The notes beneath the pieces are model-generated. The model had not been told where the DNA came from, did no database searches, and worked only from the letters and a program-made list of their open reading frames with translations. From the NCBI GenBank assembly GCA_905178155.1, contig CAJINV010000012.1, forward strand, positions 1,988,492 to 2,052,491: a stretch of DNA of 64,000 nt, in the 5' to 3' direction. A program made the translations under genes and the position numbers. Origin of the DNA: Amoebophrya sp. A120. Taxonomy: Eukaryota > Protista > Dinoflagellata. Shown here one piece after another: positions 22,101 to 58,079 of the stretch (positions are counted from its first letter, which is position 1; each line of letters starts with the position of its first letter).

Positions 22101-22193
22101 CTGAGTCTTCAACTTTCTTGGAATACCGAAACTGCAGCTCCGCCAATCGTGGAGGCATCAACAGCGGTAACTCCACCTCGAGTTTCGAATTAG

Positions 22194-25100: not shown

Positions 25101-28100
25101 TTTTCCGTCTCCAAATCCCGCTTCAAAATTTCGATCTCGTTCTCCCTTTCTTTCAACGTAGAAGTGACTTCGCTGTTCAGCTGTCGCATCTTCGTGAGCA
25201 GGTCTTTCAGCTCCTCGTTGGTCTTTTCTGCACCAGAGTAGGAAGCGGAAAGGTCGGAGTAGCTGCGATTTTTAATTGAATACGATCTGCATCTTCAATG
25301 CGGTATTCTATGCAACGCTGCAAAGAAGGCACGCATTATCTCTCTCATGTTCATCTCGTCGTGCGTAGAGGGAAGTAATGCGCCGCACCACGACCAATTC
25401 AAACAACCACAAAATACGCTTTCTCCTGGTTTTCCCGATACGCAACAGCTTCCTTTTCCAATTTCTCGTTGCTTTTCTCTAATGCCGCCTTCTCGATCTG
25501 CAAACTTTTTATCGATTCAACGTTGGCTATGTGCACCACACGCAGCTCAGCCGCCGCCATCCGTTCTCGTTCGAGTATGAGTGTGCACAACTCCGCCTCC
25601 CCCTCATTTGTCATGCAAAAAACCACATGCGCCCCATGCCTCTCGGCACTTTTCGCATGACAAGTTCTGGATGCTCAATCAGCACTACAATCTTCCGGGG
25701 TGAATTTGTCACGCAAAGCCTGCACTCTTGCCGACGCTTGTATTGCTGTTGGTGCCATACAAATGAGGGGGAGGGTGAGTTGTGCACCCTCGTATCGAGT
25801 TCCCCGACTGTGGAAGCGAACTTGTCCATGTGATGCTCCTCCCGCTTAGATTGCTCTACACGCCCCACCTCGAGAGCTTGGAGCTGATAATTTTGGTTTT
25901 TATTCATTGCATAGGATTTTGATTTTCGATGCAGAATGAGTAGTAGAAATGCAAAACCGAAAATGAACCAGAATCAACCAAATGCAAAAAAGCCGGCGCA
26001 CAGAATCAAGACAGGGCTGTCTTTGAAGGCACAATAGAAGTACTACTGCGATCCGAAACACGAGCCAGCATCATCTCTCGCTCGATAAAAATACCTTTTC
26101 TGCCATGACGAGGCGTTCCTGGTCAAACGAGCGCATTCTGTCCTCCATGAAGCGAACCTGCTCCTCCGCGGCTTTTCTGTCATCACGTAACTATCCAAGA
26201 AAAAAAGTGAGTAAGTGTAACTTTTTTGCAGGAACAGCATCACAGATTTGTTCTGCATGACAAAGAAAACCTGTCATGCGTAACTAGTACCAGTACGCGA
26301 AAACACGTATTGAAATAGCCTCCGCTCTGATGTTGCATACCCAGCATGACAAGTGTAACTGTATTGCAACATCTGCAAGGCAAAGTTACACTTACACAGT
26401 TTTTTTCTTGCATAATAGCCTTTTCCTCTCTACTTCCATCTCTTCCGTTTCGGACTTCTCCAGCGTGACCAACTTCATGTGCTCCGTGTGCAGCTCGTCG
26501 TGCTCTTTCTTCATCCTTTCAATGTCCTGCTTCAACACCGTGATCTCGGTTTGGTACTGTTCCCGTTCGTGGATGAATTCCCGCAGTTCTCCCGACAGCG
26601 TGTCTCTTTCGATCACGTAATTCGCCACCTCCTCGCGGTTCGCCTCCTTCGCCTCCTCCACTTGAATTTTCAGTTTCTCGATTTCCTGCGCCTTTTCCTC
26701 TAATTTTTGCTCTACACCCAGTCTTTCGTGGTCCTTGTCGGCGATTTTCTGTTTCCACTTCGTCTCTTCTAACTGCAGTTTCTCCTGCGAGTTGTTCTGT
26801 TCCTCGAAAAACGCAGTTTTGGACTTCGCAATTTCCTGTTCGAGGAACGCCTTCTGTTCGGCAAGTTGCTTGTGGAACGCTTTCTGCTTCAATTTCTCGT
26901 TCTCCTCGATCTCCTTTAGCTGCTTGTTGTGCGCCTCCACCAGCGCCTCAATTTTGGCTTGCAGGGCGGAATTCACAGTGGTCAGGGAAACCACACGCTG
27001 CTCCATGGAGGCGATCTGAAAAAAATGAAGTATGGGAATTTCATCTCTGCATATTTTGACAAATGAACAACTACACATAGTTAGACTTACCATGCCTATC
27101 ATGGCACGGTGCATCACAAGACGGGCTCGGGGATGAAGATTTAGCACCTGTAAGAAAAATTTCTAAACTTTTCTCCATACCTGAACATCAAAGTTCTCCC
27201 GTAACTTTTCGACCTCCTCTTCCTGAGCCCGATACACCACCTGGCTCTCGTGTAACAGTTCCCGTAACCGGCTCGCTTCTGCCCGCCCGCGCGAGCACTC
27301 CACCGCCAATGAGTTGAAGGACTTCTGCAAGTCTTTGATCAAGTCCACTCTCTGCGGCAGTTCCGGATCCAGGAAACGGAACAGGTTCACCCGAAGTTCC
27401 TCCCTTGCACGCTCCGCTTGCTCCAGCGTGTTGTAGCGAACTGTGATTTCATGATCATGTCGCGATCCTTTTTTCGTGGAGCCTCAAGCTACAATGCGTA
27501 TATGACAGCACGGCAACAATCAATATCATGATGATGAAAACTATCGGAAGAGGACAAGACTGCTACAACAACACTCCTCCACTATACTCTCCTGATCCCG
27601 CAGCTTCACTGTGAGAAATCTTGCGTTGTCCTTTTCCCAGGCCAAGTACTTTTCAATCGACACTTTGCTGTTTCGGATAATCTCGATGTGCCGCATATGC
27701 AATGTAAATTTCCTGTACATGTACAAAATGCATGACAAATTTCGCTACATTGCAGAGTCCAACTTGTCATGCTGGACTAGGATTGAAGGCAAGTTTTGTC
27801 ATGCAGAGACTGCATATGTACGTGTACGGGAAATTTCCTGTGGATACGGCAGCCCGGACTTTTCCTTGGACCCGTTCACGCCGCTCGCTGGTATGATAAT
27901 CTTATCCTGTGCAAAAGTATCGCACTCGTATGAATTGCAGGTATGCATGACAAATCTGGTTTCCTACCCAAATCTGCATTACAAATTCCAATTTTCTTCC
28001 TGATAAAATTTGTCATGCGATTTATACTAGTAAGTACGATACTTTTGCAATGCATAAATCTTCTCCTTCTCCGCTTGTCTCGAGCTCGAGCTCGATGCTG

Positions 28101-31100
28101 ACGACGCAGTGCTGTATTTGTTTTTCTGCATATTATTCACGCGCGATGCCGGTGCGAATGTCATCGCCGCGTTTGCGGCCGTTGTCTGCGCCGCCAGCAG
28201 CTGTGTAGCGGCCACAGACGTTGCAGTGGCATTTGGCAACATGAAGGAAGTAGAACCGGTGGCCGCAGAGGACGATGCAGAAAGGTCGTTGTGGGCGTTA
28301 GAAGCAGGAGGAGCCACTGCTAATGGTGCGAAGTTGCTGCTAGCCACTGCTGCATAATTAACCGCGTTCGTCGTTGGTCTTGCACCTCCTGCCTTATCGA
28401 GTTTTGAAACGTTGATTTCCTTCTCGGGTTCCGCAAGAGAAGCCGGTGCTCCTGCCCCAGCTGCCACATTCTGTTCTTCCGCTGCTTCAAAATACGTGGC
28501 CGCAACTTCCAGCCGTCTCTTTTCTTCCTGCTCGTCTATTTCCTCTTGTTCTCGGAAGTAGCTGTTTACTCTTGCATCCAGAATGGTCTGCTGTAGTCCC
28601 GTCGTTTCCTTCGCCTGCGTCGCAGCCATTCTACTCACCGTCATCGCAGCTTTAGTTGTAGTACTTTCTTGATGCTCAAGAACATCATCCAACTCCTCTT
28701 TGCTGTGATCGTTTTCCTTATCGTTATCCTCCTCCTCGTATCCTGTGCAAAAGTATCGTACTCGTATAAATGCAGGTCTTGCATTACAAATTTCTTTGTC
28801 GACGAAAATCAGCATTACAAATTTTATTTCTCATGCTGAGAAAATTTGTAATGCATTTATACGAGTACGATACTTTTGCAGTTCATACCTCGGTCACAAT
28901 TGCAACGTTCGCCGCAATCGCAACTTCGTCCCCGTTATGGACTGCAAAAATGTCTGGGTCTGGAAGGTTGGAACTTGTGATGCTAACTTTGGACTCTAAA
29001 AACTTCTGTATTGCATGACCAGCAAGAGGAGTCCGGTTTGTGCTACGCGTGGAGGGCATTTGTCATGCGGAATAGGCATCAGGAAGGCCTCTAAAAATCT
29101 GTGATGCTAGGGCTTCCATGACAGACATTCTGTGTCATGCAAAAACAGCATAACAAATTTCGGATTCTTCCAGACCCAGACATTTTTGCAATCCATACCC
29201 GTTCTCACCGCCCTCTATCCTTTCGAAGATCATTTTCGTGGTCACTCCGACCGATTTATCAAATGTAAAAATGTCTGGGTCTGGAAGATTGCAACTTGTC
29301 ATGCTAAATCAGCAGCATGCAAAAATCTGTGTTGCATGATGGCCAAAAGTCGTCCAGTTTTGACCAAGTCGGGAGGTAGTTTCTCATGCAGGATAGGCAT
29401 TAGAAAGGTCTCGCAGAATCTGTCATGCTAGGTCCTGCATTCCAGACCTCATGGCGGGTCATGGAAAAGCAGCATGACAAATCGCGCATTCTTCCAGACC
29501 CAGACATTTCTGCATTTGATACGATTCGGCGATCTTCTCCGGGGCAGCTTTCACAAACTCCTCCGCTTCGAGAAACTTTTCGTCTACTTGTAGTTCATCG
29601 TCCTGTGCGGGTGCTGGGGGTGCGGCTTTCGGATCTTCCAAAGCGGCCGCGCCAAGTGGTGGGCCTCCAATAGGGTTTTGGATTGGCGGTCCTGATCGCG
29701 CTTCTTCGTTCTCCATTGACATAATTGCGTCGTCTTCTACAATCATCTCGGTACTTCTGTAAAACTCCGCTTGCTCTTCCTCTTCATCTCCACCCGCAGC
29801 TACTAGTACACCCTGCTCTACTACTGCCGACGCATCTTCATCTTCTTTGACCTGCGCCCCTGTTGCGCCATCTGGATCCGTGCCGTCCTCGCTATCAAAT
29901 GTAAAAATGTCTGGGTCTGGAAGATTGCAACTTGTCATGCTGTTTTTGCACTCTAAAAAAATTTGTATTGCATGACCAGCAAGATTGGTATAATCTGTGC
30001 TACACGGACAGGGCATTTCTCATGCGGATGGTGCATTAGGAAGCCCTCTAAAAGTCTGCGATGCTAAGTCATGCATTACATGCATCATGGGTCATGAGAA
30101 ATATGCATGACAAATCTTGCATTCTTCCAGACCCAGACATTTTTACATTTGATACTCGCCGTAGTAAAGCAAAACCGCACTGTTCTGGACGTTCCCGTGC
30201 CTTTGCTGGTCGATCCGCAATGCTTCCGCGGAGGTCGGCGGCGGGAGCCGGTATTTCAGCAACTCTTCGTTTTGAAACAACTCCGGAGGAAGGAAGATGT
30301 TCATATTCTTTGTCGCTTCTTGCGGCTGACTGCTAGTACTTGTTTTCCCTCCACCACGACTAGAAGAAGACGAGCTCGAACTCGTCGTCCCACTAGCGCT
30401 ACTGCTGCCCACGCTCGTACTGGAACTAGAGTTGGAAAGGGATAAAGAGTTGCTGCTAGTACTGTGCTTGTTGTTGTTCCCCTTGGTCTTCTCGCCGGCC
30501 GCAGCTACTCCATTGGTGGTGGAACTGGATGCTGATGTACTTGTTGAATAAGTGTTTTTATCCTTATCCGTCCAGTGATTGATCTGCCTGGGTCCAAATC
30601 CCGGCGTCTGTGTCCCGTTTTTGTTCGCTTGGAGATACAGCCTGCCACGGCCGCCTGGGACAAATGATGAAGAAGTTGCTGAAGTTGATGTTGTGCCGGC
30701 ACTATTACTTACTTTCGCGGTCGTTGCAGAAAACGCTCGGGTCGTGGTGGAGGTCGCATTTGCTGCTGCTGCGGCTGCTACCGAGTAGTGGTTGTTCTTA
30801 CTGTTTGCACCGAGATGTAGTTGTGCTGCTGTCGTCGCCCCTGCTCGCGGTGACGGAGCGCCAGTGCTCTTTTGTTTTGGTTTTGCGTCAGAACCTCCTC
30901 GTCGTGTCGAAGAACCTGAAGATGACCTGCTCGAAGTAGAGGACGCAGAGACCACCTTCTGTGTAGTAGGAGCACTGACGAGGCTAGAAGAAGTGCTCTG
31001 ACGCACTTGCATCAAACTTCCGTTTTTACTGCTGTTCATCCCGCCAGGTACAACATTTGGAGCCGTCGTCCCCGTTGCCTGTTCTTGCGGCATTACGTGC

Positions 31101-31387
31101 CGCGGCTCATCCGGGGACGCCAGCGAAATTTTCGCTGCGGGGTTGGATTTGGATGTTGTCGCAGATTTGTTCCTCATTTTCGGCTCCAGTATGATCACGG
31201 GTTTCACGTCGGAAAAGTACATGTTACCGATTTCTTGTGTTGTGTACGTCGCTGTACGCGAAAATTTTTTCTCGTATACTCCGCCCGTGCCTAAACATGT
31301 TTTTGCTTCTTTAAAAATTTCGCAAAAGGTAAAGATCTCGCGAAACCGCGGGTGAAAGTCGTGGCGAACGAAGCAACTTCTCGACAT
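22194..31387 (-). CDS. Large coiled-coil protein with low-complexity termini, about 18 exons; start codon uncertain
   Basis: Exon chain joined across 10 introners and several GT-AG introns (e.g. about 25886-26094 and about 27017-27180); long E/K/Q heptad stretches; S/T/A-rich N-terminus. Confidence 0.7.
22467..22631. mobile_element. Introner element, family A (degenerate)
   Basis: TATGCGTTGCAAAAATATCG ... CGATACTTTTGCAATGCATA; direct repeat decayed. Confidence 0.75.
23652..23777. mobile_element. Introner element, family A
   Basis: TATGCGCTGCAAAAGTATCGTACT ... AGTACGATGCTTTTGCACAGGATA; DR TGGAG. Confidence 0.9.
25576..25794. mobile_element. Introner element, family C
   Basis: TATGAGTGTGCACAACTCCGCCTCCCCCTCATTTG ... 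CAAATGAGGGGGAGGGTGAGTTGTGCACCCTCGTA; DR TCGAG; similar to 62011-62228. Confidence 0.9.
26192..26414. mobile_element. Introner element, family E
   Basis: TATCCAAGAAAAAAA ... TTTTTTTCTTGCATA; decayed DR; reverse-orientation relative of 52606-52823. Confidence 0.85.
27696..27846. mobile_element. Introner element (singleton)
   Basis: TATGCAATGTAAATTTCCTGTACATGTACA ... TGTACGTGTACGGGAAATTTCCTGTGGATA; DR CCGCA/CGGCA. Confidence 0.8.
27903..28056. mobile_element. Introner element, family A
   Basis: TATCCTGTGCAAAAGTATCG ... CGATACTTTTGCAATGCATA; DR AATCT. Confidence 0.9.
28739..28887. mobile_element. Introner element, family A
   Basis: TATCCTGTGCAAAAGTATCGTACTCGTATAAATGCA ... TGCATTTATACGAGTACGATACTTTTGCAGTTCATA; DR CCTCG. 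Confidence 0.93.
28936..29197. mobile_element. Introner element, family B
   Basis: TATGGACTGCAAAAATGTCTGGGTCTGGAAG ... CTTCCAGACCCAGACATTTTTGCAATCCATA; DR CCCGT. Confidence 0.93.
29257..29521. mobile_element. Introner element, family B
   Basis: TATCAAATGTAAAAATGTCTGGGTCTGGAAG ... CAGACATTTCTGCATTTGATA; DR CGATT. Confidence 0.93.
29893..30154. mobile_element. Introner element, family B
   Basis: Perfect TIR of about 32 bp, TATCAAATGTAAAAATGTCTGGGTCTGGAAGA; DR CTCGC. Confidence 0.93.
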
Positions 31388-31654
31388 TTGCTTTTGGCTT
31401 TTGCCGACTAGAATCGGCTACTTCATCTCTCAAGCTCTGCCTGGCTTCTTCTCTCACGAACACTCAAAGCATAAGCACGAATACGATGTTTGCTATGATT
31501 TCTTTCAAACGAAAGTTCTTTAGCTTTAGCGCGTACAACGATGACACTGCGAACATTGAAGCACAAACTTGCTACTTTGCGTGAAGGCTGCAAAAGCTGG
31601 ACGATGCGAAAGCAGTGCGATTTCGTAAAAATGTCTTACTCTTATATCTTATTC

Positions 31655-34600: not shown

Positions 34601-36202
34601 GGCGAATGCTTGAGAAGGCTACGACCAAAAGCCCCAGGCGTCGCATTTTGGTAAGGAGAAGGCTGCGAGATGTAGTGCGCAGAAGATGCCATAGAAGATA
34701 CCCCAAGACCAGCCCCAAAGCATCATACCGTGGTGCATAATGCTACCCCGCATGGTGCTACTGGCGCACTATTCTTACTTTTGCCCTACTCTACTGTTAC
34801 CAAGTGGCAGAAGTGGAACAGTGGAGGTGTAATCACTTGAGATGAGCAGCCTGTTTCAGACGAAAAAAAGCCAAACCCACTTGATATCTGCTAGGGTGAT
34901 TTGACGCGAAAAAGACGTGTTTCGGGCATCAATTTGATGCCAAAAATCGCGGCTTTTTGCAGGGGTGATTCAAGCAGATTCGAAGCGGGAGGAGTCAAAT
35001 GAATCATAGGGCTAATTGATAGCTACAAAACGCAAGGTGATTACACCTCTTTTTTTGCTTCGAAAAAGATGAATTTTTGGCAAAAGTTGAGCTTTTTTCA
35101 GAAAATCCGACACCCTCGGGACGCTACGCCCGACGGTATGGAGGTGTAATCACTTCATTTTTATGGTGTCGCTTTTCCTATCTTTAGCAATGGGCTTGTG
35201 CTTGGTATTTTGGGTTGCGAATGCTTCCCCCGAGTTGTTTGCAAGCTATTCAGGCGCGATGGCCCCAGCGTCCACTCATGGCCATTGCGTTCGTCCCCCG
35301 TAGCCACCAACCAAATAGCGCAAACCTTATCGAGAAAGGCGCGACCTTCCTGAGGAGCGTCGCTGTGTCTCAGGTTATTTGGTTGTATATATTGGGCGCT
35401 TCCTTATGCGTGCGAGCCGGGCCATGCACTGCGGTACTTGGAAAGTTTTTTTTTTCCGTATGGTGATTCATTTGTAAGGTGATTCATTTACCCCTGTGAT
35501 AGTCGTGTTTTGAAATTTGTAATGCTCCATCAATCAGCACGATAGGCTACATTTGTGATGCTGCTGAACGAGCAAAACCGGACAACTACCCCACGAGGCC
35601 AAGCTTGTCATGCGCAACATCAGCCTAAGCTTGTTGATTTGTCTAGCAGATTTCCCTTCTTGACTATGGGGATGGGCGGGGACCTTTTTCCTCAGGATAT
35701 CTGGGGACAGGATTTTTGTTCGCGTGTACGGCTCGTAGCTGCTTGTCCGCGACGCCGCGGCGGTCATCGCGATCTGTTGGTCTTCCCGCTGTGACAACTC
35801 GTCATGAGGATTTATTTGTTCGTTCTCGACGTTATTTTCCTCGGGTAAGGAATTCAAAGTGGATCTCCGGTCAAAAATATTCTGGTCCTCCACACGACAA
35901 CTAGACGGCCGTCGTAGACTCTCCGCGATCCGGCCGGGTGTGATGCAGCAAGCGCTCGAACGGCGGGACAGAACTTCGAGCCCACAGTCGTCCAGCAGAG
36001 CGTCGCCCCGTTCCAGCCCGTTTTTTTCCACCATCCTTGCCCAAACGCCCGTTGGGTCGTAGGGCGCGACCTGGGAAAGCGACTGTCGTTGGTCCCATTC
36101 GTGTTTCCGGCGTCTGACGTTTTCCTCGTAATTCTTCCGCGCCGCAATAAAGGCGTGCTTATTCAAAAGCAGGGACGAGGAGGAGGGGGAGGTAGTGGAC
36201 AT
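31655..36202 (-). CDS. ER-bound oxygenase MpaB / rubber oxygenase (DUF2236) family protein with C-terminal TM segment
   Basis: PPWVDFAKVKLGQ, VRHMHALAR, PLSQFDL and RFIGYHLGIED motifs. Exons about 36202-35646, about 34397-33295 and 33039-31655. Hydrophobic C-terminal helix. Confidence 0.8.
33040..33294. mobile_element. Introner element, family A-like, with internal 25-bp tandem duplication
   Basis: TATCCTGTGCAAAA ... TTTTGCAGTTCATA; DR ATCAT/ATCCT; AGTAACTGTCCGACATATACAGCTA twice. Confidence 0.85.
34466..35501. mobile_element. 1,036-bp non-autonomous TIR element nested in an intron
   Basis: TIR TATCAAAGGAGCAAGTGAATCAC vs reverse complement TATCACAGGGGTAAATGAATCAC (19/23); 5-bp TSD GTCGT; repeated AATCAC/GTGATT motifs. 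Confidence 0.85.
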
Positions 36203-45445: not shown

Positions 45446-48400
45446 TTACTTTTTCTTCACAGTATTTGTGACTTTTTTCGCCCGTTCGGCGTACTTCAAG
45501 GAATTCATGGTTTCGTCGACGTTTGAGCTGGCGGGCGAGCAATTCATAAACATCAAGGTTTTCGAACTGCCGCCCAGCGAGTCCTGCATCAGCTGCGTTA
45601 AGGAGTGATTCCTGTACGGCACGAGAGACGGGTTGAATTTTTTTCCGGCCGGCTGACTCGTGAGCGCTTCAATCACGTCGCCCAAAGCGGTCAGCGACTT
45701 GTTGATTTCTATGGCTTCCTTCTGCGCCTGCCCGGTAACTTCCGACTTTGCGATCCGCTCACACCCCGCCAAATCGCACATCAACAACTTTCCCACCGTT
45801 TTTGCTTTCGTTTGCTTGTTGATGGAGGTCAGCTTCACTATCGTGATCAGATGCGACCGCGAGGATTCGCTATTCATGGCCGTGGCCGCGACGGACCGCA
45901 AATCAAAACCCTCCTCGATGGCTTTTTCCATCTGTTTATCAAATGCAAATATGTCTGGGTCGTCTGGAAGGTTGCAACTTGTCATGCTAAATCTGAATCA
46001 TGCAAACAATCTGTGTTGCACGATTACCAAAAGCCGTCGTTTTTTACCAACTTGGGAGGGAACAATCTCTCATGCAGAATAGGCATTATAGAGATCTCCC
46101 AAGTAAATTTGTCATGCTAGGCGCTGCATTCCAGACCTCATGGGTCATGGAAAACCTGCGTGACAAATCTTGCATCCTTCCAGACCCAGACATATTTGCA
46201 CTCCATACTGTTTTGCGGACTCCACCTGCCGCTCCACCGCGTTCTCCACCTGCACGGAGCCGTCCTTCTCTATCGCAAAGAAAAAAGTGTTACAGTTACG
46301 CATTGTGTTGCAGACCATGCAACAGAGACGAGCTCTGTCATGCGCAAAATGCTTTCGAGCCTCATTTACATTTACATTTAATACGTGTTTTCCCTTGTGA
46401 TCTCTGCATTGCAAGTTTTCTCTGTCATGCGAGGCAAGGCTGTGATGCTGAATTCACTACATCAAATGTGTGACTGTAACACTTTTTTCTATACCATATT
46501 CTCCCTCCGCACCTTAATCTCCGGCGTTTTCACGGAGGCCTGGTTCCCCGCCTGCACGGACTTCGCCAGCAAATCCGTATCGTACGAAAAAAGTGCTTCA
46601 CTGTAAGGATTTTGCAAGTTTTGCATCACAAGCTTGCTCTACATCACAGAGGAAATTTCCCATGCGAGATTCCTAAGGGAAAACACAGGTGAAAATCCAC
46701 TGTCTTGCATGTGTGGCAAGACAAATAGAAATACTTCTCAGATACATTTTCTGCATTACAAGTTTACAGTGGAACAATTTTTTCTTGTGATAATCCGTAA
46801 ACTTCGCGCAGTAGAGTTCGATCATGTGCAGGGAAATCGTGAACGTAAAACGCTCTTTGTCTCGCTCCACAATGTCGAAGACCTCGACGCAGCTCCGGGG
46901 CACCACGCCCTCGTCGCCCTTTTTCCCCGTCATGGTGTACGTCTTCCCCGCACCGGTTTGCCCGTAGGCGAAGATGGTTACATTGTATCCGTTATCAAAT
47001 GTAAACATGTCTGGATCTCCTGGAAGATTGCTAGGTTTGTCATGCATATTTTACAACATGACCCGCGATGCCTGTAATGCATGGCCTAGCATCACAGATT
47101 TTGAGAGGGCTTTCTGATGCGTATTCCGTATTACAGATGCACTCTCCGCGTAGCACAAACTGGACTCCTTTTGCTGGTCATGCAATACAGATTTTTTTAG
47201 AATCCAGAGACAGCATCACAAGTTGCAGTCTTCCAGCTGCAGACATATTTGCAATGCATATCCGTCGAAGGCGGACTGGACCAAGTCCTTCGTGTCTTCG
47301 AAAATCTGCGCCTGCGATCCCGGAAAGTGCGCGGCGTCAAACATGAATTCCTTCTTCGGCCCGTCTGGGTTGTTGGGGTGCTCTTCGACTGAGAGCGTCT
47401 GAGAGTCGATTTTAGCTACCGCGTTGTGGTCCCCGAGGTCCGCTTCCCTTTCGTTGAAGGGGCGCACGCGGACAAAGACCCGGATGGAGCCTTTCAGGTC
47501 CTCCACGTGGTTGTGGAGTTTTTTCTTGCGGATTTCCAAACTCGCCAAATCAGCCTCCAGCACACCCGCGAGTCGGGCAAATTTGAAGGTCTGCTGGCAC
47601 TCTTTTTCCTCTATGGAAGCCTCAGCTGGAACGATCTACTGACCATTTCTCAAGTGGAGGTGGAGCAGTGTAGTAATTGCAGCAGATATAAATAAGGCCA
47701 GATTTGTTGCCTTACAGAAACGGCAAGTAAGAGTAGAGCACAGTCTACTACCTGTCGCTCCCGCTTTGCACGAGAAGCTTTGGAAAAAATAATGGAGCGG
47801 TTTGGTTGTTTGACGACGAGTGTCGGATTCTGATATTTGTCATGCTAGGCTCCATGATAGCACAGGCGTGACAGAGAGACGCAGCCATGCAGATGATCCA
47901 CAACTTGCATCACAAATCACTTAATTTCAGTTGAGATTGTACCCGATGAGCACACCATATCCCACTGCTTCAACTTTTCCCCGTCTTGCTCCAAATCGTC
48001 GATTTTTTCAGCGTATGAATCGCAAACAGCTCCTCCGGCTCTAGAAAAATAAACTTGTCATGCGAAAAATCTGTAAATCTGAATGCTGAGAGAGCTTCTA
48101 CGAGAGGTAACCAAGCATGACAGTTTTTTGGAACCGGTGCAGGTGCTATGCGATGCGAATTGCGATTCCGCATGAAAAATCGCATGTAATGTTCTTTCCA
48201 GAACCGGACGACATGTTTGCGAATTGATACGAAATCTTTCGTTTTGTCCATCACAAGTTTCACTTCCTCCAACAATTTCTGCTTCTCCTTCTCCATTATG
48301 CATCACAAAGGTAATATCGCTCTTCTGCTCGCATCATCATCATGAACTGCACTTTACAAATTTGTCTGGTGCTATTGCTGCAAGAGTTTGCTGTATATGC

Positions 48401-51400
48401 CAAATCAGGCACCGGCTGCAGCACATGCATATTCACCCTTGTCAACTACAAAATCTTGTGACCTGCTCCCAATTGCAATTTGCACTACCAACAGAAGTCC
48501 GACACTTTTTTTTCCGGATCATATCCTTCTCGATCCACAAATTAGCCTTTTCCATCACTTTCCGCGGTTCGTCCATCAGAATGTTCAGTTTTTTGCAACC
48601 CGTAAACGCTTTCGTAACTTCGTCGAAACTCACCGTCGCTGCGTGCAACTTTTCCTCCAGCGCGTCCAGTGCAAGCTGCTTCGGCTCCTCGACCTTCAGT
48701 AGCTGCTCCGCCTGACTGACATCGCCCCCACAGAGTTTCAACCCGGCAATGGCTGATTTCAATTTTTCAATGTTCAGCGGCTTCGTCTGCAGCACGAGAT
48801 TCAACATGCTCTCTGCCTTCTGTTTGTTCTATCCTGTGCAAAAGTATCGCACTCCCACTCGTATTGCAATCATGCATTACAAATCCCTGTTCCTACCTAA
48901 GCAGGTAATTCCGCATTACAAACTTCATTTCTCATCATGCTGAGGAAATTTGTAATGCATTTATATTAGGGGTGAAAAAAATCCATTCCGAGCCCGGTTC
49001 CCAAAATGTTTGCTGAAGTAATTCTTGCAAGGGATGAAAAGTCGATAGGGCCCCGCTTCGCATTCGAGGAGCAAAGCCAAGCACTTTGCGCGATCTGTGT
49101 GCGCGAGCTGTTGCAATGCGGTTGGCGAGACCGTACTCATATCACAGCTTCACTTTGCATGCCGTCGCCGATGCTGTGGCTGTAGTTTGTAAAGCGCCCC
49201 CCGTCGAGCATCAAAAAACACGAGCTGCGACCATTTTGACAGCCTTTTCCTACCTTTCACCGTTTCGCGTACATTTGCAGGTATTCAATTTTCTGCGCAA
49301 ATTTGTTTGCTCTACTCCTTCAGCGGTGTCCGACAGAAGTCCGGAAAACGCCGAATCCTATTGGAAATTTGTTTGTTGGACCCACTTGTGGGACTAGTTC
49401 AATTCTTTCAAACTTCAGCTGAAGCTCAAATTTGACTTAAAGCTTCAAGTCAAATTTGAACTTCAACTGAAGTTTGAAAGAAATTTGCAAGCTCTGCAAG
49501 TCACAGAGTGTTGCGAAAGAGCGGGAAACGATGATAAAACGCTCCCAGCTCCTTTTCCGCCCCGAAAGGCGCACGATCACAAATGAAGGTCCGCAAAAAG
49601 GTTCAAAAAATCAAATCGCTACTTTGCAGCGCGAACGCGCTCACGGAGCCGAGCGTCACAAACTGCTGCTCGTGTCTTCTTGCGCAGATGCCTTTTTTCT
49701 GGCCAGGCTTCAAACATTTTGGGAGCCGTTGAGCGGATGGATTTTTTTGAGCCTTAATTATACGCGTGCGTGTGCGATACATCTTTTGCAAAGCATATGT
49801 TCTGAAACGCGTCAATTTTGTCCAGAAATTCCCGTTTATCCGGATCCTCCTTCTCCAATTTCTCTACTTCCTGCTGCAGCTCCTGCACCTTCGTATGAAC
49901 TGCAAAAGTATCGTACTCGTATAAATGCATTACAAATTTCCTCAGCATGAGAGATAAAATCTGTAATGCGGATTAACCTTAAGAAAAGGATTTGTAATGC
50001 ATGACTGCAATACGAGTACGATACTTTTGCACAGGATACTTCGCTTGCGCACACAGCTCCTCCAGTTTCGCGCGCTTCGCCATCCGGGCCTTCGCCTGGT
50101 CGTACACCTCTTTCACGTGCTTCATCGCGTTCGCCGTTCCGCCCTGGGAGGAGGAGGGCGAAGTTGTTGTACCTCCACCCGTATGAATTGCAAAAGTATC
50201 GTACTCGTATAAATGCATTACAAATTTCCTCAACATGAGAGATAAAATTTGTAATGCGAATTTCCCTTAAGAACAAGGTTTGTAATGCATGACTGCAATA
50301 CGAGTACGATACTTTTGCACAGGATAACCCGTAGCCTGTTGCACCAGGTCGAACGCTTTCAAATTTTCCGCTTTCCGCACCACTTGTTCGAACTTCTGGA
50401 ACAGTGATTTCAGATTCTCTATCCACTGCAAATATGTCTGGGTCTGGAAGATGTCATGCTGGGAAACTAAGGGCAGGGCGTCCCTTTGTAAATTACGTCG
50501 ACAAACTCTTAACCGCGTACCCGGTAAACTCCAAAACAGAAATTTTGAACAGCGTGATTTCTACCGAGAGACAACAACCGAAACTCCTGGGACGGCTGCG
50601 ACGTGAGTAGGTTGTTATCTAGGTAGAAATAACTCTGTGCAAACTCCCTGTCTCAGCACCGAGGGAACCAAAATAAAAAGTAAAAGGGTCTGGAAGATGT
50701 CATGCATATTTTGCATGACCGATGATGCCTGCAATGCATGACCTAGCATTACAGATTTTCAGAGGGCTTCCTGATACGTATTTCGCATGAGAAATGCCCT
50801 CTCCGCGTAGCACTACCGGGACTTCTCTTCCTGGTCATGCAATACAGGTTTTCTTCGAATCGAAAGACAGCAACAGCATCACAAGTTGCAACCTTCCAGA
50901 CGTCCAGGGATATTTGCATTCGATATTCTCAGCGGACGACCCAGCACCCGTATCGTGCTCGAAGTCGTCACAGGCGTGGCAAGCTTCGTCGATGGCCGCG
51001 TGCAGTTCCCGAAGTTCTTTCAGCTTTTCTTGACACTCCACGTACACCGGGTCGCTTTCGATCTCGATCTCCTGTTCTGCCGCAGCCTTGGCGTGGGTGA
51101 GGGCCTGCTCAATCTTTTCGAAGTTGTTCGAAAGCAAGGCCTGCTTCAGTTTTTCGACCAACGCCTCTTTGCTGTTGTCCTCCGCAGAAATTTCGATGTC
51201 GTCCCCAAAATCGTCGTGGTCTCGCAGCGACTTCCGGGAGTGCCTCGCCGCGGTCTTCCCCTTGGAGGTTTTCGCGGCGGCGGCCTTGGATTTCGACTTC
51301 GGAACGGACGGTTTTTCGCCCTTCGGCTTGATTTTCGTCTTCTTGGCCACCGCCGTCGCCTCGTCCACATCAGTGGAAGATTTGTCATCCTCGGCAGCGA

Positions 51401-54400
51401 GGGACCCGTTGGAAGATTTCAGACTGCTGCCACTTTTCGGCGCTTTCTTCTTCGGCGCGACCTTCTTCACAATTTTCTTCTTCACCGTTTTCGTGGATTT
51501 CGGCTCTGCCGGGCCTTTGCCCTCCGGGTCGTCCTCATCGTTCGCGTTTAATCCATCCTCGCCAGTCGTGCTTGTAAGCGCCTTGGCCCCGGATTTCTTC
51601 TTCGGCAGGGCTTTTGTTTTCTTAGTTGTGCCTGCGGTCTTCTTCGCACCGGAAGAAGTCGTCGTTCCCGCCTTCTTCTTCGAGGTCGCCTTCTTTCCCC
51701 CCGACGTAGAACCCCCGCCGAGCGAGGGGATCTTTGGCACGTTACCGTCGGCGTCCAGGTATGCTAGGGAAAAGCATCTTGTTGTTTGCGAGTGTAGTAA
51801 AATTGGAATTATGCACCATGATAAGCGTCCTTCTTTTAGATACTTCTACTTGTTGAATCAGCTGCATTACCAATTGTCATGCTGGTGGTGCTGAGCAAAT
51901 TTGATCATCTGCACTTCACTACGTAGTTGCGCCAATGCTTTTGTTCCGATGCATACCATATCCTGTGCAAAAGTATCGTACTCGTATAAATGCATTACAA
52001 ATTTCGTCAGCATGAGAAATAAAATTTGTAATGCAGATTTCCCTTGGAAAAAAGATTTGTAATGCAAGACTTGCATTTGTACGAGTACGATACTTTTGCA
52101 CAGGATATACCAGGGCGAGCCCGTCGTTGTCTTCGAAAACTTCATCCTCCTCGTCAAAGTCCGGTTCGCAGGGGATATCAACTGCCAAAATTTCTGGGTC
52201 TGGAAACTTGTGATGCAAGAAAGGGAATAGTGAACTCACTATCTATAATGCGCTGCCAAGCATGACAAGTTTTTTCCATGGCTCTGAGTTGCGTCATCAA
52301 CATCATCATCATCATCATGCATGAGAAACTGCGTTTTTGCATGACAGGGAGGAGGAGCTCTTCGCGGTCATGGTGCGACACAGAGCTCAGAGTCATGCCA
52401 GACAAGCATGACAAATCTCGCAATCTCCCAGACCCAGAAAGTTTTGCATTTGATAGGGGACCATATCGGACAAATTAATGCCCTCCTCGTCCTCCTCTCC
52501 GTCCTCGCCGAACCGCGGGGAGCCCGGCACTTCGTACTCCTCAATCTCATACTCCTCTTCTTCGGCGTCCTCCACTTCCTCTCCTTCTGACACCGAGTAG
52601 CCCCCTATGCAAGAAAAAAACTGTGTAAAGAAGTGTAGCTTTGTGTTGCAGACGTTGCAATACAGTCACACTTGTCATGCTGGATGTGCATCAGAGGCTA
52701 TTTTCATGATACGTGTTTTCGCGTACAACTAGCTACGCATGACAGGTTTTCTCTGTTATGCAAAGCAAATCTGTGATGCTGTTCCTGCAAAAAAGTTACA
52801 CTTACACACCTTTTTCTTGGATACCCCCATCCCTCTCGTCAATGAAGTCGCAGAGCTCCTGGCCCCACGGCGTCTGCGGCACGTCAAGGCCGGCGTGGTA
52901 CAGAATGGCGCCTATGCATGGCAAATATGTTTGGGTCTGGAAGGACGCGAACTTGCCATGCTAACTCTGGATAGTACGAAAAATTTTTGTTGCATGATTA
53001 CCACAGGTGTCTCCACTTTTGAAAAAGTTTAGCGGCAGTTTGTCATGCAGGATAGACATGATAAGTAGAGACTTCGTGCCAGAACCTGTCATGCTAGGTG
53101 GTCCTGGATTGCATACCTCATGGGGCATGGAAAATACGCGCGACAAGTTTGCATTCTTCCAGACCCAGACATATTTGCAGTGAATAGTACCCATCTTCAT
53201 GTCATTCCGGTACTCCGCATAGCCCATCGCGTTGTGCGACTCGTAGTCCTTGTTTTCCAAAAAAGATTTTTCGTCCAGCTCCTGCGATTGGACGAAGTTG
53301 ATCAGCTTCTGGGCAATGTTGCGGTCCCCAACGTCAACGGACACCATCAGGGGGGTCACTCCGTGCGAATCAGCCGCGTTAATCCTCTATGCAGTGTTCG
53401 GGCACGACAATCATGATGACGCGCCATCAATTTCGTAGTGGTCATGCGGCAGATAATGAAGCAGGTGCTTCGATGCTACAAATAAATGCGAAGACATCCT
53501 CAACAAGACAAGTACCCAACAACATCTCGCTTACTGTATATGAATCTGTCCTTATAATTTGCTCATGCTCTTTCTTTCGCAATACAAATGTGGATCGTGA
53601 CCTCGTTGAACAAGGTGCTGCACATCATGATTGTCCCATTTTTCATTTTGCATACCATGGCGCCGAATTGCAGGAGCGCGGTGACCAACTCTGCCTGGGC
53701 GTTGTCGTGCTTCACGGCGGCGCGCATCTTGCTGTTTTTGCGGCAGCAGTGGTGCAGGGCGGTCAGGTTGGAGTCGTCCCTCGCGTTGATTTGGATGAAG
53801 GGATTCTTCAGTAAGAAGTGCACCACCTCCGCCTGCCCGAAGCCGCAGGCGTACATCAACAGCGTGCGCCATCGGCTGTCGCGCACATTCGGGGACAAGA
53901 GTTCCGAACTGGACGACCGGTACTCGTCGTCGTTTAAGTATTGCGAGGAAAAATCCCCCCTCCCCATAGCTAAGACAAAATTTGTGCTGCTGTATTTGAC
54001 TTACACAAGTCCTCGCCTTGTATTGCTAGAAGGCGAAGAAACGCAGTTGCTCCCTCGATTGCAGGCAATTTGTCATGCTGTTTCCCGTTTCCAGTTTCTT
54101 CCTGTCATGCTGAAGACGCAAGGCTTTCCTACGCCAGCCAGCACTACAGTCCGCATCTCTTCCCTTCTAGCATGACAAACAAATCATGCTACAAAAATCT
54201 CCCTTTGAGTACTATGGGGAGGGGGGATTTTTCCTTTTGATATCAAGTATTGCTCGGTTTTCCACTGCTCCTCGGTGCCGAGGTATTCCCGCAACGTTTG
54301 CACATCCCCGTCCCGGGCTGCCAGCAGGGCCTTTTTCACCTTATTCAGGTACTCCGGGGAGTGCGTGTGCTGGTGTATGGATGTGTCAGGTTTGAAATCT

Positions 54401-54712
54401 TCAAAGTTGAAATAATTTGTAATGCATAAAGTGCATGACCCGGGGTACGTGTGTTGCAGAGCAGGCAAGTGAGGCCGATTGTGAGCCTGTTTGGGGTTAC
54501 AGCTCGAGCTGCTAGAGTAGCATGAGAAAATCGCTCTTCTTTGCCTAAACAGCATGACAAACTGGATTCAGGGACCACCGAAATTTGTCACTGGCATCCA
54601 TTTTATGCATGACAAATTATTTCAACTTTGTCGATTTCAACTCTGACACATCCATATGGTGAGTGCTGGTCGTGCCGGAGGATGCTGGGGTGGTGGAATC
54701 TTGATCGGGCAT
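45446..54712 (-). CDS. Kinesin-14-type protein: N-terminal ankyrin repeats, K/E-rich and coiled-coil middle, C-terminal motor
   Basis: Neck RKKKLHNHVEDLKGSIRVFVRVRP, P-loop YGQTGAGKT, switch I NSESSRSH, switch II DLAGCER, VPYRNHSLTQLMQDSLGG; ankyrin motifs RTLLMYAC, LTALHHCC, GVTPLM. ATG at 54712. 16 introners. Confidence 0.88.
45937..46207. mobile_element. Introner element, family B
   Basis: TATCAAATGCAAATATGTCTGGGTC ... GACCCAGACATATTTGCACTCCATA; DR CTGTT. Confidence 0.92.
46271..46498. mobile_element. Introner element, family E-like
   Basis: TATCGCAAAGAAAAAAGTGTTACAGT ... ACTGTAACACTTTTTTCTATACCATA; DR TTCTC. Confidence 0.9.
46578..46792. mobile_element. Introner element (degenerate TIR)
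   Basis: TATCGTACGAAAAAA ... TTTTTTCTTGTGATA; DR ATCCG. Confidence 0.85.
46993..47260. mobile_element. Introner element, family B (reverse orientation)
   Basis: TATCAAATGTAAACATGTCTG ... CAGACATATTTGCAATGCATA; DR TCCGT; removal restores FDGY-NVTIFAYGQTG. Confidence 0.93.
48297..48523. mobile_element. Degenerate introner element
   Basis: TATG...CATA termini; DR TCCAT/TCCTT; interrupts a coiled-coil exon. Confidence 0.6.
48966..49757. mobile_element. 792-bp MITE-like element nested in an introner
   Basis: Imperfect TIR of about 45 bp (TTAGGGGTGAAAAAAATCCAT..CCCAAAATGTTTG vs reverse complement TTAAGGCTCAAAAAAATCCAT..CCCAAAATGTTTG); TSD TTATA; removal restores the family A sequence GCATTTATACG. 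Confidence 0.88.
49403..49482. repeat. 80-bp spacerless palindrome
   Basis: TTCTTTCAAACTTCAGCTGAAGCTCAAATTTGACTTAAAG|CTTCAAGTCAAATTTGAACTTCAACTGAAGTTTGAAAGAA; 37 of 40 positions pair. Confidence 0.92.
49894..50038. mobile_element. Introner element, family A (reverse orientation)
   Basis: TATGAACTGCAAAAGTATCG ... CGATACTTTTGCACAGGATA; DR CTTCG. Confidence 0.93.
50182..50326. mobile_element. Introner element, family A (near-identical to 49894-50038)
   Basis: TATGAATTGCAAAAGTATCG ... CACAGGATA; DR ACCCG; same 145-bp length as its neighbour. Confidence 0.93.
50420..50925. mobile_element. Introner element, family B, carrying a nested insertion
   Basis: TATCCACTGCAAATATGTCTGG ... CCAGGGATATTTGCATTCGATA; DR TTCTC. 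Confidence 0.88.
50460..50685 (+). mobile_element. 226-bp retroposon-like insert (SINE or 5'-truncated LINE)
   Basis: Flanked by a perfect 20-bp duplication GGGTCTGGAAGATGTCATGC (50440-50459, 50686-50705); A-rich 3' tail AAAATAAAAAGTAAAA; no TIR. Confidence 0.75.
51959..52107. mobile_element. Introner element, family A
   Basis: TIR TATCCTGTGCAAAAGTATCGTACTCGTA on both ends; DR TACCA. Confidence 0.93.
52176..52455. mobile_element. Introner element, family B-like
   Basis: TATCAACTGCCAAAATTTCTGGGTCTGG ... CCAGACCCAGAAAGTTTTGCATTTGATA; DR GGGGA. Confidence 0.9.
52606..52823. mobile_element. Introner element, family E
   Basis: TATGCAAGAAAAAAA ... TTTTTCTTGGATA; DR CCCCC. Confidence 0.9.
52913..53186. 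mobile_element. Introner element, family B
   Basis: TATGCATGGCAAATATGTTTGGGTCTGGAAG ... CTTCCAGACCCAGACATATTTGCAGTGAATA; DR decayed (GCGCC/GTACC). Confidence 0.85.
53388..53654. mobile_element. Degenerate introner, now compatible with GT-AG splicing
   Basis: TATGCA..GACAATCATGATG / CATCATGATTGTC..TGCATA; on the minus strand it reads GTATGC...CATAG. Confidence 0.7.
53939..54242. mobile_element. Introner element (family C-like purine/pyrimidine TIR)
   Basis: TATTGCGAGGAAAAATCCCCCCTCCCCATAG ... CTATGGGGAGGGGGGATTTTTCCTTTTGATA; DR TTAAG/TCAAG. Confidence 0.88.
54376..54656. mobile_element. Introner element (singleton, long TIR)
   Basis: TATGGATGTGTCAG..AAAGTTGAAATAATTTGT ... CTGACACATCCATA; DR TGGTG. 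Confidence 0.92.
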
Positions 54713-55622
54713 CTTTTTATGTATGGTTTAGGCTTTCTGATTCTGCTTACCCCTGCAACGTAAATGTTAACGTACGTCAAAAAAGTTCGTATCGATAGTG
54801 TGGCTGCGATGCTGGGCTGGGGTGCAATAAACAAAACAGAGAGTGAGTGAGTATGTAAATACAACTACGCTACTAGAAAATCTACGTGATAATTTTCAAT
54901 GGGGAGGGGTACTAAATATTGCGCTGATAAGTTGTCGCTACATGGTTTGTTCACTGTATGTGTTGATGTATACGAATGGTGGCGCACGAGCAGACACTGC
55001 AAACAATCAAGAACCGGAAGGCCAAAACGACTCTGAAAAATACGACGACCACACCACCGAAAGCTAAGGAATGATGTCCACAACCGAAAAGCAACGTACT
55101 TCATCTGCGGTCGTCGTTTGTCAAGCAACCATTGCGCGTTTCTTTGGGCTGAAAGAACGATGGACCGAATCAACAATACAGAGCGCCGTCGTCGCTTTGC
55201 ACTGCAGGAGTGCTGCGTCAGACCGAAGTTTACAGCTGCGCCGCGGACCGACATTTTTACGTGAGGGCGGGGCAATAAAACGACCGAATATGATGTCAGG
55301 TCTTTTCTTTGACTTTGTTAATGTTATCAACATCACGATTGAGAAGTCAGTCGTCTTTTCGTTTTCCGCAGGGGGTAGCGAAACGGGCAATTGAACGAGG
55401 AGCGCCACCGAAAAATATTGATTTTGTCACAATTTTCTTACATCTACTACCGGGGCCGCGATGAAACAATGTAGACGATGCTACGACGATGAGCAGTAGC
55501 GACGAACAGGTAAAAAATATCAAGTTTTAAATTAGGCAATTACGCTTGCAGTTTCGTGGCTGCAGAATGGCTTGCTTCATTTTGCATTTCATCGATCCTT
55601 AGGCCTACTTGGTAGAAAAACC

Positions 55623-58079
55623 TCATGGTGGAAACTGTTTCAACTTCCCTCTCTGGTCGAGAATCTGACGGAGTTCGCGAATCAATATTCTGGATTCGCT
55701 TTCGCTGTTCTTTTTGGCAGCATCAGAAGTTTGCAGCTTCTCCGCTGTTGTACGAAAATTACTTCGAAAAAAGTTCAAAGTCTCCACACTCTTCCCCTCA
55801 TCGGGCCGCAGGAGAAAGGTGATATTGTGGCGATGCTGAAAATTATAACTTTCGGACTCACTGCCACTGCAGCCTGTTGCGTCTTTATAATCAAACTCGA
55901 AGTTTATCCGATGCGGCAACGCGGTGAAGATTTTGTTGGTGAAAAGCTCCAGATAATCACCGATCCAGAGGGTAAGGATAATGCTCTTGGAGCTGTCAGC
56001 TTGACCTTGAGCTCCACGGAAGTCCGTGCCGACCAATAAATCCTGAATTTTTACCCAGGATTTTTCTCCTAGTTCCGCTTCGTTTTCCGAAGTGGTTGCA
56101 GAGCTCCTTGTTCTCTCGTGGTCCTCACCACCACTATCCTGTGCAAAAGTATCGTACTCGTATAAATGCAAGTAGTGCATTACGAATCTTGTTCCCAAGG
56201 CAAATCTGCATTACAAATTTTCTTTCTCATGCTGAGGAAATTTGTAATGCATTTATACGAGTGCGATACTTTTGCAATTCATAACCAGCAGGTAGTAGCA
56301 ACTCCAACCCCCTCCTGGCCAAAGACAAGGTCAAAAAGGTCGCGTCGGTATGGGCGGGGAACGAAACACCGGATGAAAGCGCGGAAGTTTTAGAACAAGG
56401 TGCTGCAGCTGCTTCTTGTGCTTCCACATTTTTATCGTATCTACTTTCTACTACAGGCGCTGGCTCGTCTTCATTTCTCGTTTCCACCTGCTCGGCATGA
56501 CAAACTCGGGGCTCGTACCTTGAGCATCGCAGCACGGACGCAGAAACGGAAAAGCTGTCCTCGTCTTTTTCATCGCACAGAAGTATGAACTGCAAAAGTA
56601 TCTATCGTACTCCTACTCGTATAAATGCATTACAAATTGAAATTCCCTCACCTCCATGAGAAATAAGATTTGTAATGCTGATTTGCCTTGGGAACAAGAT
56701 TTGTCATGTTGCAAGACTTGCATTTATACGAGTGCGATACATTTGCACTGGATAAGAAGCTCTGTGAAGCAATTTATTCTCCTGGTCGCGTGGTCCGCGT
56801 TTTTCCCACTACTTGAATTAGATTCAGACAACGCCTTCTCGCATGCTGACAGAGACGCAGCACAACAACAGCTCCCTTTACTTGTAGTTATTTCCCGTAC
56901 TTGAAGTAGACAACTCTCTTGCTGCTCCAACGTGCTGGCCGCGCAGAATTCAAAGATCCAATCCAGCGCCTCGGTCGCCAAATCGCGCAAAAAATTGTAG
57001 GAAAAACTTCCCAACGCGTGCTGCAACTTCGGCCGGATGCCAAGCGGAGTGTTTTTCAGATCAAGGAAATCCGCGTTGTGCCGTTTGGTGTAACCGCACT
57101 TCACAAGATTGCTCCACTTTTTCATAGAAGTAGACGGTTTTGCAGTCAGTGCAGTAGTTCTTGTTGAGGGTTCATCATTGAGAGAAGCTCTTGACGGCGG
57201 CGCGGCGGTCGCACGGCCGTGCGCATCGTTGTCCAGTCGCCTTCTTGGCGTGACGTGGTCATCCTTATTGCTGTCGCCAACTTCTTCCTCAAAGTAGCCT
57301 TGTAGGTTGCGCAGTTCGGTTATGAAGGCCTCAGAATGGAAATTCTCAAAGTGAAAATCATTTGTGATGCATGAAATGCGACACCAGAAAGACTGTATTG
57401 CAGAGAAATGCAGGTCGACTATTGTGCTTCCACGGGTTCAGAATTGGGCTGCTGACTAGCATGAGAGAAGGGCACCGCTTTGCCTAACTAGCATGACAGA
57501 CACGTAGGTTTGAGTGCCCGGAAAATTTGTCATGCGCCGACTAGAAATGGTGTTCCAACTGGAGTCGTTTCTTTGCATTACAAATTATTCTCACTTTGAG
57601 GATTTCCAACCTGAGGCTTTCATATCGGTGAAAAGTGCGGCAGAAGCTTCTGGGTCCGTCACTCGCAGGAGCACGTAGCTGTTCTGTTGAAGGAATGAAA
57701 GGCACTGCTGCCTGATTGAATTTTTGTCCTTACTACAGATGCTTGGATGATGAAGATTAAGATCTCCTATTAGTTCGCCCACACCAGGGGAGGCACCTCC
57801 TGCTCCAGTAGAATCACCCTTCTTCCGCACGTCAGAAAGATCGAAAATGGGCGGCGAAGTGTCGGCCGTTGACGAGGTTTTTGAACCGGGGAGAGTACCT
57901 CCTTGAATAGTATCGAAGTCATTTTTCTTCGTTTGGGTGAAGGCATTCCGCCCAGCAGGAGTTCGATCATCTACTTCACATGTTGGGGACAAGCAGGGGA
58001 CTACACCCGCAACGGCATCCCCATCTTTTACGCGATTGCATTTGCAGCGAACTACACCCGCCCGGCATATTGCAGACAT
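55623..58079 (-). CDS. 2OG-Fe(II) dioxygenase (isopenicillin N synthase-like fold)
   Basis: PAHTDATFLTL (HxD), WIGDYLELFTNKIFTALPHRI (distal His) and RHNITFLLRP; three introners. Confidence 0.8.
56135..56283. mobile_element. Introner element, family A
   Basis: TATCCTGTGCAAAAGTATCG ... CGATACTTTTGCAATTCATA; DR ACCAC/ACCAG. Confidence 0.9.
56584..56754. mobile_element. Introner element, family A (reverse orientation)
   Basis: TATGAACTGCAAAAGTATC ... GATACATTTGCACTGGATA; DR AGAAG. Confidence 0.9.
57321..57624. mobile_element. Introner element (singleton, TIR about 50 bp)
   Basis: TATGAAGGCCTCAGAATGGAAATTCTCAAAGTGA ... TCACTTTGAGGATTTCCAACCTGAGGCTTTCATA; DR TCGGT. Confidence 0.92.

Follow-up and report, generated by a model that had tools for sequence, protein, structure and literature searches.

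The window analysed here is a stretch of 64,000 nucleotides from the marine parasitic dinoflagellate Amoebophrya sp. A120 (assembly GCA_905178155.1, contig CAJINV010000012.1, positions 1,988,492 to 2,052,491), whose genes are interrupted by introners, that is, inserted elements with terminal inverted repeats (TIRs) that behave as introns. The elements are removed together with one copy of their flanking duplication, leaving no scar, in both orientations and with no need for AG at the 3' end or for G at the first intron position (+1). If one register is shared by all junctions, we infer an intron of the form N + TAT...ATA + NNNN, which would start one base before the TAT and end four bases after the ATA. 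The elements, the idea of a hairpin and introners inserted both ways are already in print; what is added to published work is a proposed fixed cut register that is free of AG and free at its first base. How A120 splices its non-canonical introns has been an unanswered question since 2021, in part because the junctions are masked by the 5-bp repeats. A register of this kind would give exact predictions (the 5' end of the lariat, candidate branch points and the bases to mutate) and would allow the re-annotation of tens of thousands of introns. Since neither the first base nor an AG matters, insertion would need no choice of target or orientation.

Forty-one elements were curated in the window by a scan for ends that pair with each other and by hand. 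Read on the sense (minus) strand, 40/41 start with TAT and 41/41 end with ATA, and the flanking 5-bp repeats are identical in 27/40 (one nested copy is excluded from this count); on these numbers the pattern is not due to chance. The target duplication is 5 bp throughout, and long inverted arms are found in all elements except four old introns. The copies are non-autonomous and carry no transposase; a comparison with Rfam gave no match, and the family B end was not found in viral contigs. These are the introners already described for A120 (PMC7789003, Farhat et al. 2021), with inverted ends starting in TAT, direct repeats of 3-5 nt, non-canonical junctions and a predicted hairpin, and all the traits compared are shared: location in A120 genes, TAT inverted ends, direct repeats, families and removal outside the GT-AG rule. 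In PMC7789003, about 65% of A120 introns are non-canonical with their borders left undefined, splice positions relative to the hairpin are variable or unknown with no clear signature, and the minor spliceosome is reported absent. The word 'orientation', used four times in that text, concerns genes, whereas here insertion in both directions is counted and one register fits all informative junctions. Introner diversity and the A120 families are also covered by PMC9860276 and PMC12130899; the accessible portions of PMC11282704 and PMC12787238 add nothing on the cut register. No statement of the register or of orientation counts in A120 was found in the openly accessible texts searched, figures and preprint supplements, which could hold such information, excepted.

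The elements fall into repeated families, recovered both by self-BLAST and by BLAST with interiors only, the arms having been removed. Family A copies 28739 and 56135 are opposite in orientation to 49894, 50182 and 56584, the right end of the last being TATCCAGTGC with 1 mismatch. The family E copies 26192-26414 and 52606-52823 are reverse complements of each other (84.8% over 230 nt, E 7e-66), and family B copy 29893 is opposite to 46993 (79.3%) and to 50420 (77.2%). An earlier sequence-only reading of the window had assigned these orientations, and both searches reproduce them for every A, B and E copy that it named. It had also placed all host genes on the minus strand, which holds: RNA joints read CT..AC on the plus strand, and the minus-strand open reading frames correspond to the annotated proteins P0001 and P0121. 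Counted over the window, orientations are 7:4 in family A (n=11 copies) and 7:3 in family B (n=10 copies, 52176 being a weak call). Outside the window, at least 143 loci with the family A end (L001-L143) occur in one metagenome assembly, which also holds B, E and other families, has 0 loci matching window exons and would derive from the same species or a close relative; a few of its arms begin TGT, TAC or CAT. Strand was called there for 174/271 unique elements by a coding model that was correct in 17/17, 11/11 and 6/6 held-out chunks above margin and agreed with purine skew in 78/78 called loci. Orientations are 35:49 in A (p 0.16), 7:6 in B, 5:4 in H and 2:7 in E, with 52 elements unassigned; both orientations occur in all four families among the strand-called loci of this assembly.

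Removal can be followed in two annotated genes and in RNA-like contigs. The genes are as follows.

22190..31222 (ends approximate), minus strand: host gene 1, coding for a 1970-aa coiled-coil protein; 10 introners and 6 canonical introns; spliced translation equal to P0121
45446..54745 (ends approximate), minus strand: host gene 2, coding for an ankyrin-repeat kinesin of 1221 aa; 18 element-type introns; spliced translation equal to P0001

Both proteins are named Amoebophrya sp. A120, and P0001 and P0121 match an exon of the right-hand and the left-hand gene, respectively, at 100%. Spliced translations made by removing each element plus one repeat copy are identical to P0001 at 1221/1221 residues over 18 introns and to P0121 at 1970/1970 residues over 16 introns. 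P0001 contains the Pfam domains Kinesin and Ank; P0121 has a weak match, below cut-off, to the CENP-F leucine zipper. A protein search with the ankyrin exon as query gave no protein match. The two annotations were built from RNA-seq, and are independent of the register inference though not of RNA data generally.

Four contig runs (2 samples of 1 study), contigs only and none recorded as RNA, were guessed to be RNA. A contig of ~6.9 kb, present in 4/4 runs, skips 11 introns within 25300-30700, namely 8 elements (26192, 28739 and 29893 among them) and 3 GT-AG introns; these three read CT..AC on the plus strand, which identifies the material as spliced RNA transcribed from a minus-strand gene. 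For 44500-62500 the table of joints is swamped by repeats, and lengths of records and pieces were used instead. A record of 1624 nt equals the spliced length of 44984-47609, with two opposite-orientation B copies and two E-like copies removed; one of 1447 nt equals spliced 48524-51754 (A 48830, A 49894, A 50182 and B 50420), and one of 1944 nt has the length expected for 55574-58156 once A 56135, A 56584 and 57321 are spliced out. E 26192 has an RNA joint, and the removal of E 52606 is read from the annotated protein P0001 alone. Splicing in either orientation, as claimed for A, B and E in the sequence-only reading, is in this way confirmed by RNA contigs or annotated proteins. The pieces of run X5, which is DNA-like, terminate inside elements, and the raw-read run X9 gave 45 aligned reads with no junctions. 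The introns concerned are listed below, with the source of the evidence and, for informative junctions, the cuts allowed (in bases into the sense repeat).

22467..22631, minus: TIR introner, repeats TCGGC / GCGGT; P0121, cut 1-4
23652..23777, minus: family A introner; removal needed for P0121
25263..25417, minus: canonical intron GTATTT...CAG; loose RNA-contig end, placed afterwards; P0121
25576..25794, minus: TIR introner with sense donor end TAC, still removed; RNA joint 25570>25795
25884..26094, minus: canonical intron GTATTT...CAG; RNA joint
26192..26414, minus: family E introner with diverged repeats (sense GCTAT / GTTAC), inferred intron 26188-26415; RNA joint 26187>26416 in 4/4 runs; cut 2, 3 or 4
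27016..27180, minus: canonical intron GTATGG...CAG; RNA joint
27441..27587, minus: canonical intron GTATAG...CAG with unambiguous junction; RNA joint, 0 sliding letters
27696..27846, minus: TIR introner, repeats TGCCG / TGCGG; RNA joint 27690>27847 and P0121; cut 4 or 5
27903..28056, minus: family A introner, TATCCTG end left; RNA joint 27897>28057
28739..28887, minus: family A introner, TATCCTG end left, the sole element (1/41) reading GT-AG at the shared cut; RNA joint 28733>28888
28936..29197, minus: family B introner; RNA joint 28930>29198
29257..29521, minus: family B introner; RNA joint 29251>29522
29893..30154, minus: family B introner, arms paired 37/38; RNA joint 29887>30155
45937..46207, minus: family B introner, same orientation as 29893; 1624-nt RNA record
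46271-46498 and 46578-46792, minus: two E-like introners; 1624-nt RNA record
46993..47260, minus: family B introner, opposite to 29893; 1624-nt RNA record
47612..47959, minus: old stemless intron, ends TATGG...CCATA, folding z-score (z) -0.3; P0001, cut 2-5
48014..48229, minus: TIR intron, flanking repeats alike at 1/5; P0001, cut 3-5
48297..48523, minus: old stemless intron, ends TATG...CATA, z -0.9; P0001, cut 2-5
48830..49797, minus: family A introner with nested TIR element 48965-49758; 1447-nt RNA record
49894..50038, minus: family A introner, TATCCTG end right; 1447-nt RNA record
50182..50326, minus: family A introner, TATCCTG end right; 1447-nt RNA record
50420..50925, minus: family B introner, opposite to 29893, with internal insertion; 1447-nt RNA record
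51760..52109, minus: old stemless intron 51760-51955 (z -1.5) with family A copy 51959-52107 at its donor end; RNA piece end 51754 and P0001
52176..52455, minus: B-like introner; removal needed for P0001
52606..52823, minus: family E introner, reverse complement of 26192; removal needed for P0001
52913..53186, minus: B-like introner, repeats GGTAC / GGCGC; P0001, cut 4 or 5
53388..53654, minus: old stemless intron, ends TATGCA...TGCATA, z -0.5; P0001, cut 3 or 4
53939-54242 and 54376-54656, minus: two TIR introners; P0001
56135..56283, minus: family A introner, TATCCTG end left; 1944-nt RNA record, cut 1-5
56584..56754, minus: family A introner, opposite to 56135 in the same transcript; 1944-nt RNA record
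57321..57624, minus: TIR introner; adjoining RNA pieces 57315|57625 and 1944-nt record

False introns are known to arise at hairpins with short flanking repeats, where reverse transcriptase may jump from one repeat to the other. An artefact of this kind, or runs that represent the DNA of a strain free of the insertions, would fit runs that are contigs and only guessed to be RNA. Such an origin is nevertheless highly improbable, given that the same contigs lack the GT-AG introns, the pieces of the DNA-like run X5 end inside elements, an intact kinesin motor requires removal, and stemless introns as well as one with repeats alike at 1/5 are also removed.

Where the flanking repeats are identical the junction can slide over six positions, and only diverged repeats inform on the cut. 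Nine of the 13 diverged-repeat junctions are informative; 33040, 41768 and 42721 are not among them, and 53939 is synonymous. RNA joints allow cuts 2, 3 or 4 at 26192 and 4 or 5 at 27696, and RNA piece ends allow 1-5 at 56135. P0001 allows 2-5 at 47612, 3-5 at 48014, 2-5 at 48297, 4 or 5 at 52913 and 3 or 4 at 53388, and P0121 allows 1-4 at 22467. Cut 4 is the sole value common to all nine: 27696 and 52913 force a cut of at least 4, 26192, 53388 and 22467 force one of at most 4, and the remainder include 4. A GT-AG cut is possible at 52913 (after 1 nt) but differs from the annotated cut, and at 53388 AGs lying 1 and 3 bases into the repeat are bypassed. The relative A25, with TTA ends and TT donors, backs two of the cut choices (KMGT and ASIN), its protein P0004 sharing KMGT at 52913.

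With the intron taken to start one base before TAT, this triplet occupies +2..+4, the place that it holds in the canonical donors of gene 1, which read GTAT in 5/6 introns (four of them RNA-supported). The nine commonest non-canonical donors of A120 in Table S4 of PMC7789003 are all NT, with T at +2. The first base is free: in the window +1 is T12 A12 G12 C4 (n=40), G accounts for 12/40 there and for 49/174 outside elements, and the composition at 131 outside sites matches the exon background (p 0.62). AG stands at the shared cut in 1/41 window elements and in 13/174 outside elements, about the expectation from exon composition, and only 2/41 window elements could achieve GT-AG at any cut. The next exon starts with a purine in 104/174 outside elements, as does the exon background, and over the 131 outside sites the duplication at +1 and at the last three intron bases resembles ordinary exon sequence. 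The sequence-only reading had held that removal depends on no strand-specific donor, branch or acceptor but on the terminal RNA hairpin or a symmetric signal. Its symmetric signal stands, with neither a strand-specific AG nor a +1 G in use; the claim that no donor sequence is read is not supported, as TAT would fall on +2..+4 of canonical GTAT donors. Two trends seen in the window were dropped: scarce C at +1 (4/40) was not repeated outside (27/131, where 32.6 would be expected), nor did the T at -3 of diverged repeats recur in the 174 outside elements. A likeness of TATCCTG to the U12 donor was set aside on account of the reported absence of the minor spliceosome.

The freedom of orientation, which to the sequence-only reading had suggested structure-guided splicing, does not of itself imply it. 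Elements with inverted ends should show such freedom in any case, and because these ends present the same TAT...ATA either way, it does not discriminate between sequence and structure. In the strong form of that proposal, also advanced in PMC7789003, the long TIR hairpin sets the cut sites and sequence is incidental. Stemmed copies do fold far below shuffled controls (z -2.2 to -15.1), as any TIR must. However, if an RNA stem were selected, G-U should exceed A-C among the arm mismatches of the transcribed strand, and the ratios are 14:25 in the window and 122:118 at the outside loci. Compensatory covariation, the check that had been proposed, is not borne out either. Most changes affect one arm only (54 against 8 concordant in A, 37 against 7 in B), and the concordant ones, of which a single misaligned copy accounts for 6 in A, do not count as RNA covariation because they can arise in DNA. 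Four old introns (47612, 48297, 51760 and 53388) are stemless, with z from -0.3 to -1.5, yet they are removed, three of them with junctions consistent with the shared register, which goes against reliance on the long hairpin. Bases 4-7 are mostly unpaired. The cut offset is the same whether or not the last seven bases pair. Control of the cut by the long hairpin is accordingly quite unlikely, although two stemless introns with A at +1 speak for it, as RNA contigs break at both and one of them also has a retained form. A helping role may remain for the hairpin or for a terminal helix of 4-6 bp.

What the stemless introns keep is the ends: 4-6 terminal bases are still complementary, and the ends read TATG...CATA in 4/4 stemless against 5/36 stemmed copies (Fisher p 0.0014, in a small set found by hand). 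Among 130 candidates from a search for stemless introns at the outside loci, 3/6 with perfect repeats are TATG...CATA. In family A the terminal change rate is below that of the arm interior, in a set conditioned on mismatch and holding subfamily variants.

The reading preferred here, to which we give a probability of about 0.5, is that these introns are non-autonomous TIR transposons and that their removal is the work of a relaxed U2-type spliceosome, guided by the short palindromic ends and not by the long hairpin. TAT at +2..+4, as in GTAT donors, would pair with the ACAGAGA region of U6; U6 would take over the donor where U1 is missing, and the U2-type spliceosome is our guess for the machinery of removal. 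The ATA end would be the reference point for the 3' cut, and the branch A might lie within that end, at -7 or -5 by our guess, close to the 3' end as in Giardia. The stem may help to bring the ends together but would not serve as a ruler. Either orientation would supply both signals, because the TIR is its own reverse complement.

Several points weigh against this reading. Placed at -5 or -7, the branch A would be nearer to the 3' end than is usual. TAT..ATA in young copies does not prove a role in splicing, since a transposase would need the same ends, and in family B the TAT end is no better conserved than the arm interior (17/303 vs 56/1010). At +5, C vs G is 90:77 in outside elements, unlike strong pairing with U6. 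No single junction fixes cut 4, and 5/9 informative junctions are known from gene annotation only, itself built from RNA-seq. The stemless set is small (n=4), 3/4 of it could still pair at position 5, which would fit a short helix, and the outside search for stemless introns is dominated by chance pairs. The two stemless introns with A at +1 lie at RNA contig breaks while stemmed ones run through; 47612-47959 has a retained form in run X1 (seen over 47580-47989, depth 17 beside 229), and an RNA contig ends at the donor of 48297-48523 (48524). These breaks and the retained form are a weak hint that the stem helps. Lastly, U1 small nuclear RNA (snRNA) was not found in A120 according to PMC7789003.

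That same result would suit a separate machinery, non-spliceosomal or heavily remodelled, which recognizes UAU[G]/[C]AUA paired as a short helix at the intron ends, with overhangs of 1 and 4 nt, needs both motif and pairing and may release a circle instead of a lariat. The design is that of the nonconventional introns of Euglena, N3CDG...CH'GN5-6, which depend on the motif as well as on its pairing (PMC12501133), and it agrees with the 4-6 complementary terminal bases of the stemless introns and with the disuse of +1 G and AG. On the other hand, TAT stands in the canonical GTAT register, position 4 is paired in only 14/36 stemmed copies, the last three pairs have a predicted probability <0.1 in several removed copies (27696, 46993, 50182 and 56135), and 25576 is removed despite a C-A mismatch at the third pair. 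This machinery is possible, though on the unlikely side. Both systems have short complementary motifs at fixed offsets, a longer 3' overhang, inverted ends and sliding direct repeats; in Euglena the motifs CDG/CH'G lie at offsets 3 and 5-6 and a purine starts the next exon, whereas in A120 TAT/ATA lie at 1 and 4, and neither the Euglena motif nor its purine rule is followed by the A120 elements. A bolder and rather doubtful version is that N-UAU...AUA-NNNN is a second intron code of A120, one that needs neither G+1 nor AG nor U1 and is read by a chemistry other than the U2 lariat, a convergent counterpart of the Euglena introns outside Euglenozoa. If so, any TAT...ATA transposon with a 5-bp duplication would act as an intron wherever and whichever way round it inserts, and would leave no scar.

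Likenesses are found in several lineages, and those in Fritillaria and Giardia speak for the spliceosomal reading. Two-way introners are in print for Aureococcus (Huff 2016 via PMC10228655) and Polarella glacialis (10.1101/2020.10.14.339549); they too are TIR transposons that act as introns in either orientation, with cuts inside the target duplication or next to it. Their GT/GC/GA + AG sites are carried or recruited, often in several frames and with an orientation bias, unlike A120, where the frame appears fixed and any base may stand at +1 and at the last two positions. The TIR introners of Fritillaria borealis need the U2 spliceosome (10.1101/2025.08.15.670264; PMC13326754) and likewise take non-GT/AG splice sites from the TIRs of non-autonomous transposons, but their end sequences are different and U1 is conserved there; in A120 the 3' cut falls beyond the element, inside the duplication. 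Giardia has a spliceosome that works with VTATGTT donors and with a branch site fused to the 3' site (PMC6679479), and the introns of Giardia and Trichomonas resemble those of A120 in this donor with its variable first base and in a 3' site at fixed distance from the branch point; they differ in ending in AG, in a long conserved branch motif and in not being transposon-derived. As for the transposons, IS3EU/GingerRoot elements (PMC10045372), an integrase-like superfamily, share the TA..TA termini of the A120 elements; their duplication is usually 6 bp, against 5 bp here.

Some further features of the elements were observed. The motif GCAT[GTC]ACA or its reverse complement has 110/123 of its window hits inside the 11.9 kb of elements and spans unrelated families and stemless introns; it could be a site for transposase or a host factor. 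As an internal branch point, GCAT[GTC]AC was rejected for now, with no strand bias (9 vs 4, p 0.27) and a variable position. The element nested in family A 48830 (48965-49758, ~790 bp) has TIR ends ATTAGGGG...CCTTAAT and an internal palindrome at 49403-49482; further copies of it exist, and the 968-nt composite is still removed. At 51760-52109 an older intron has a family A copy inserted over its donor end, and removal could proceed in two steps, as in a stwintron, or in one from the new GTATAT donor; this copy (51959) has the TATCCTG end on both sides. The B copy 50420 contains an insertion of ~245 bp at 50433-50710, bordered by a 20-nt direct repeat of the arm. A relative of 61669 at 34363-35697 harbours a nested TAT...ATA element of 1036 bp (34466-35501). 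Elsewhere in the window, 2438-2907 and 17898-18367 form a 470-bp inverted duplicate of 98.7% identity, 10329-10481 is an inverted-repeat element without TAT ends, and 43025-43400, which begins TATGCATTGCAAA and is rich in the motif, is probably an old intron.

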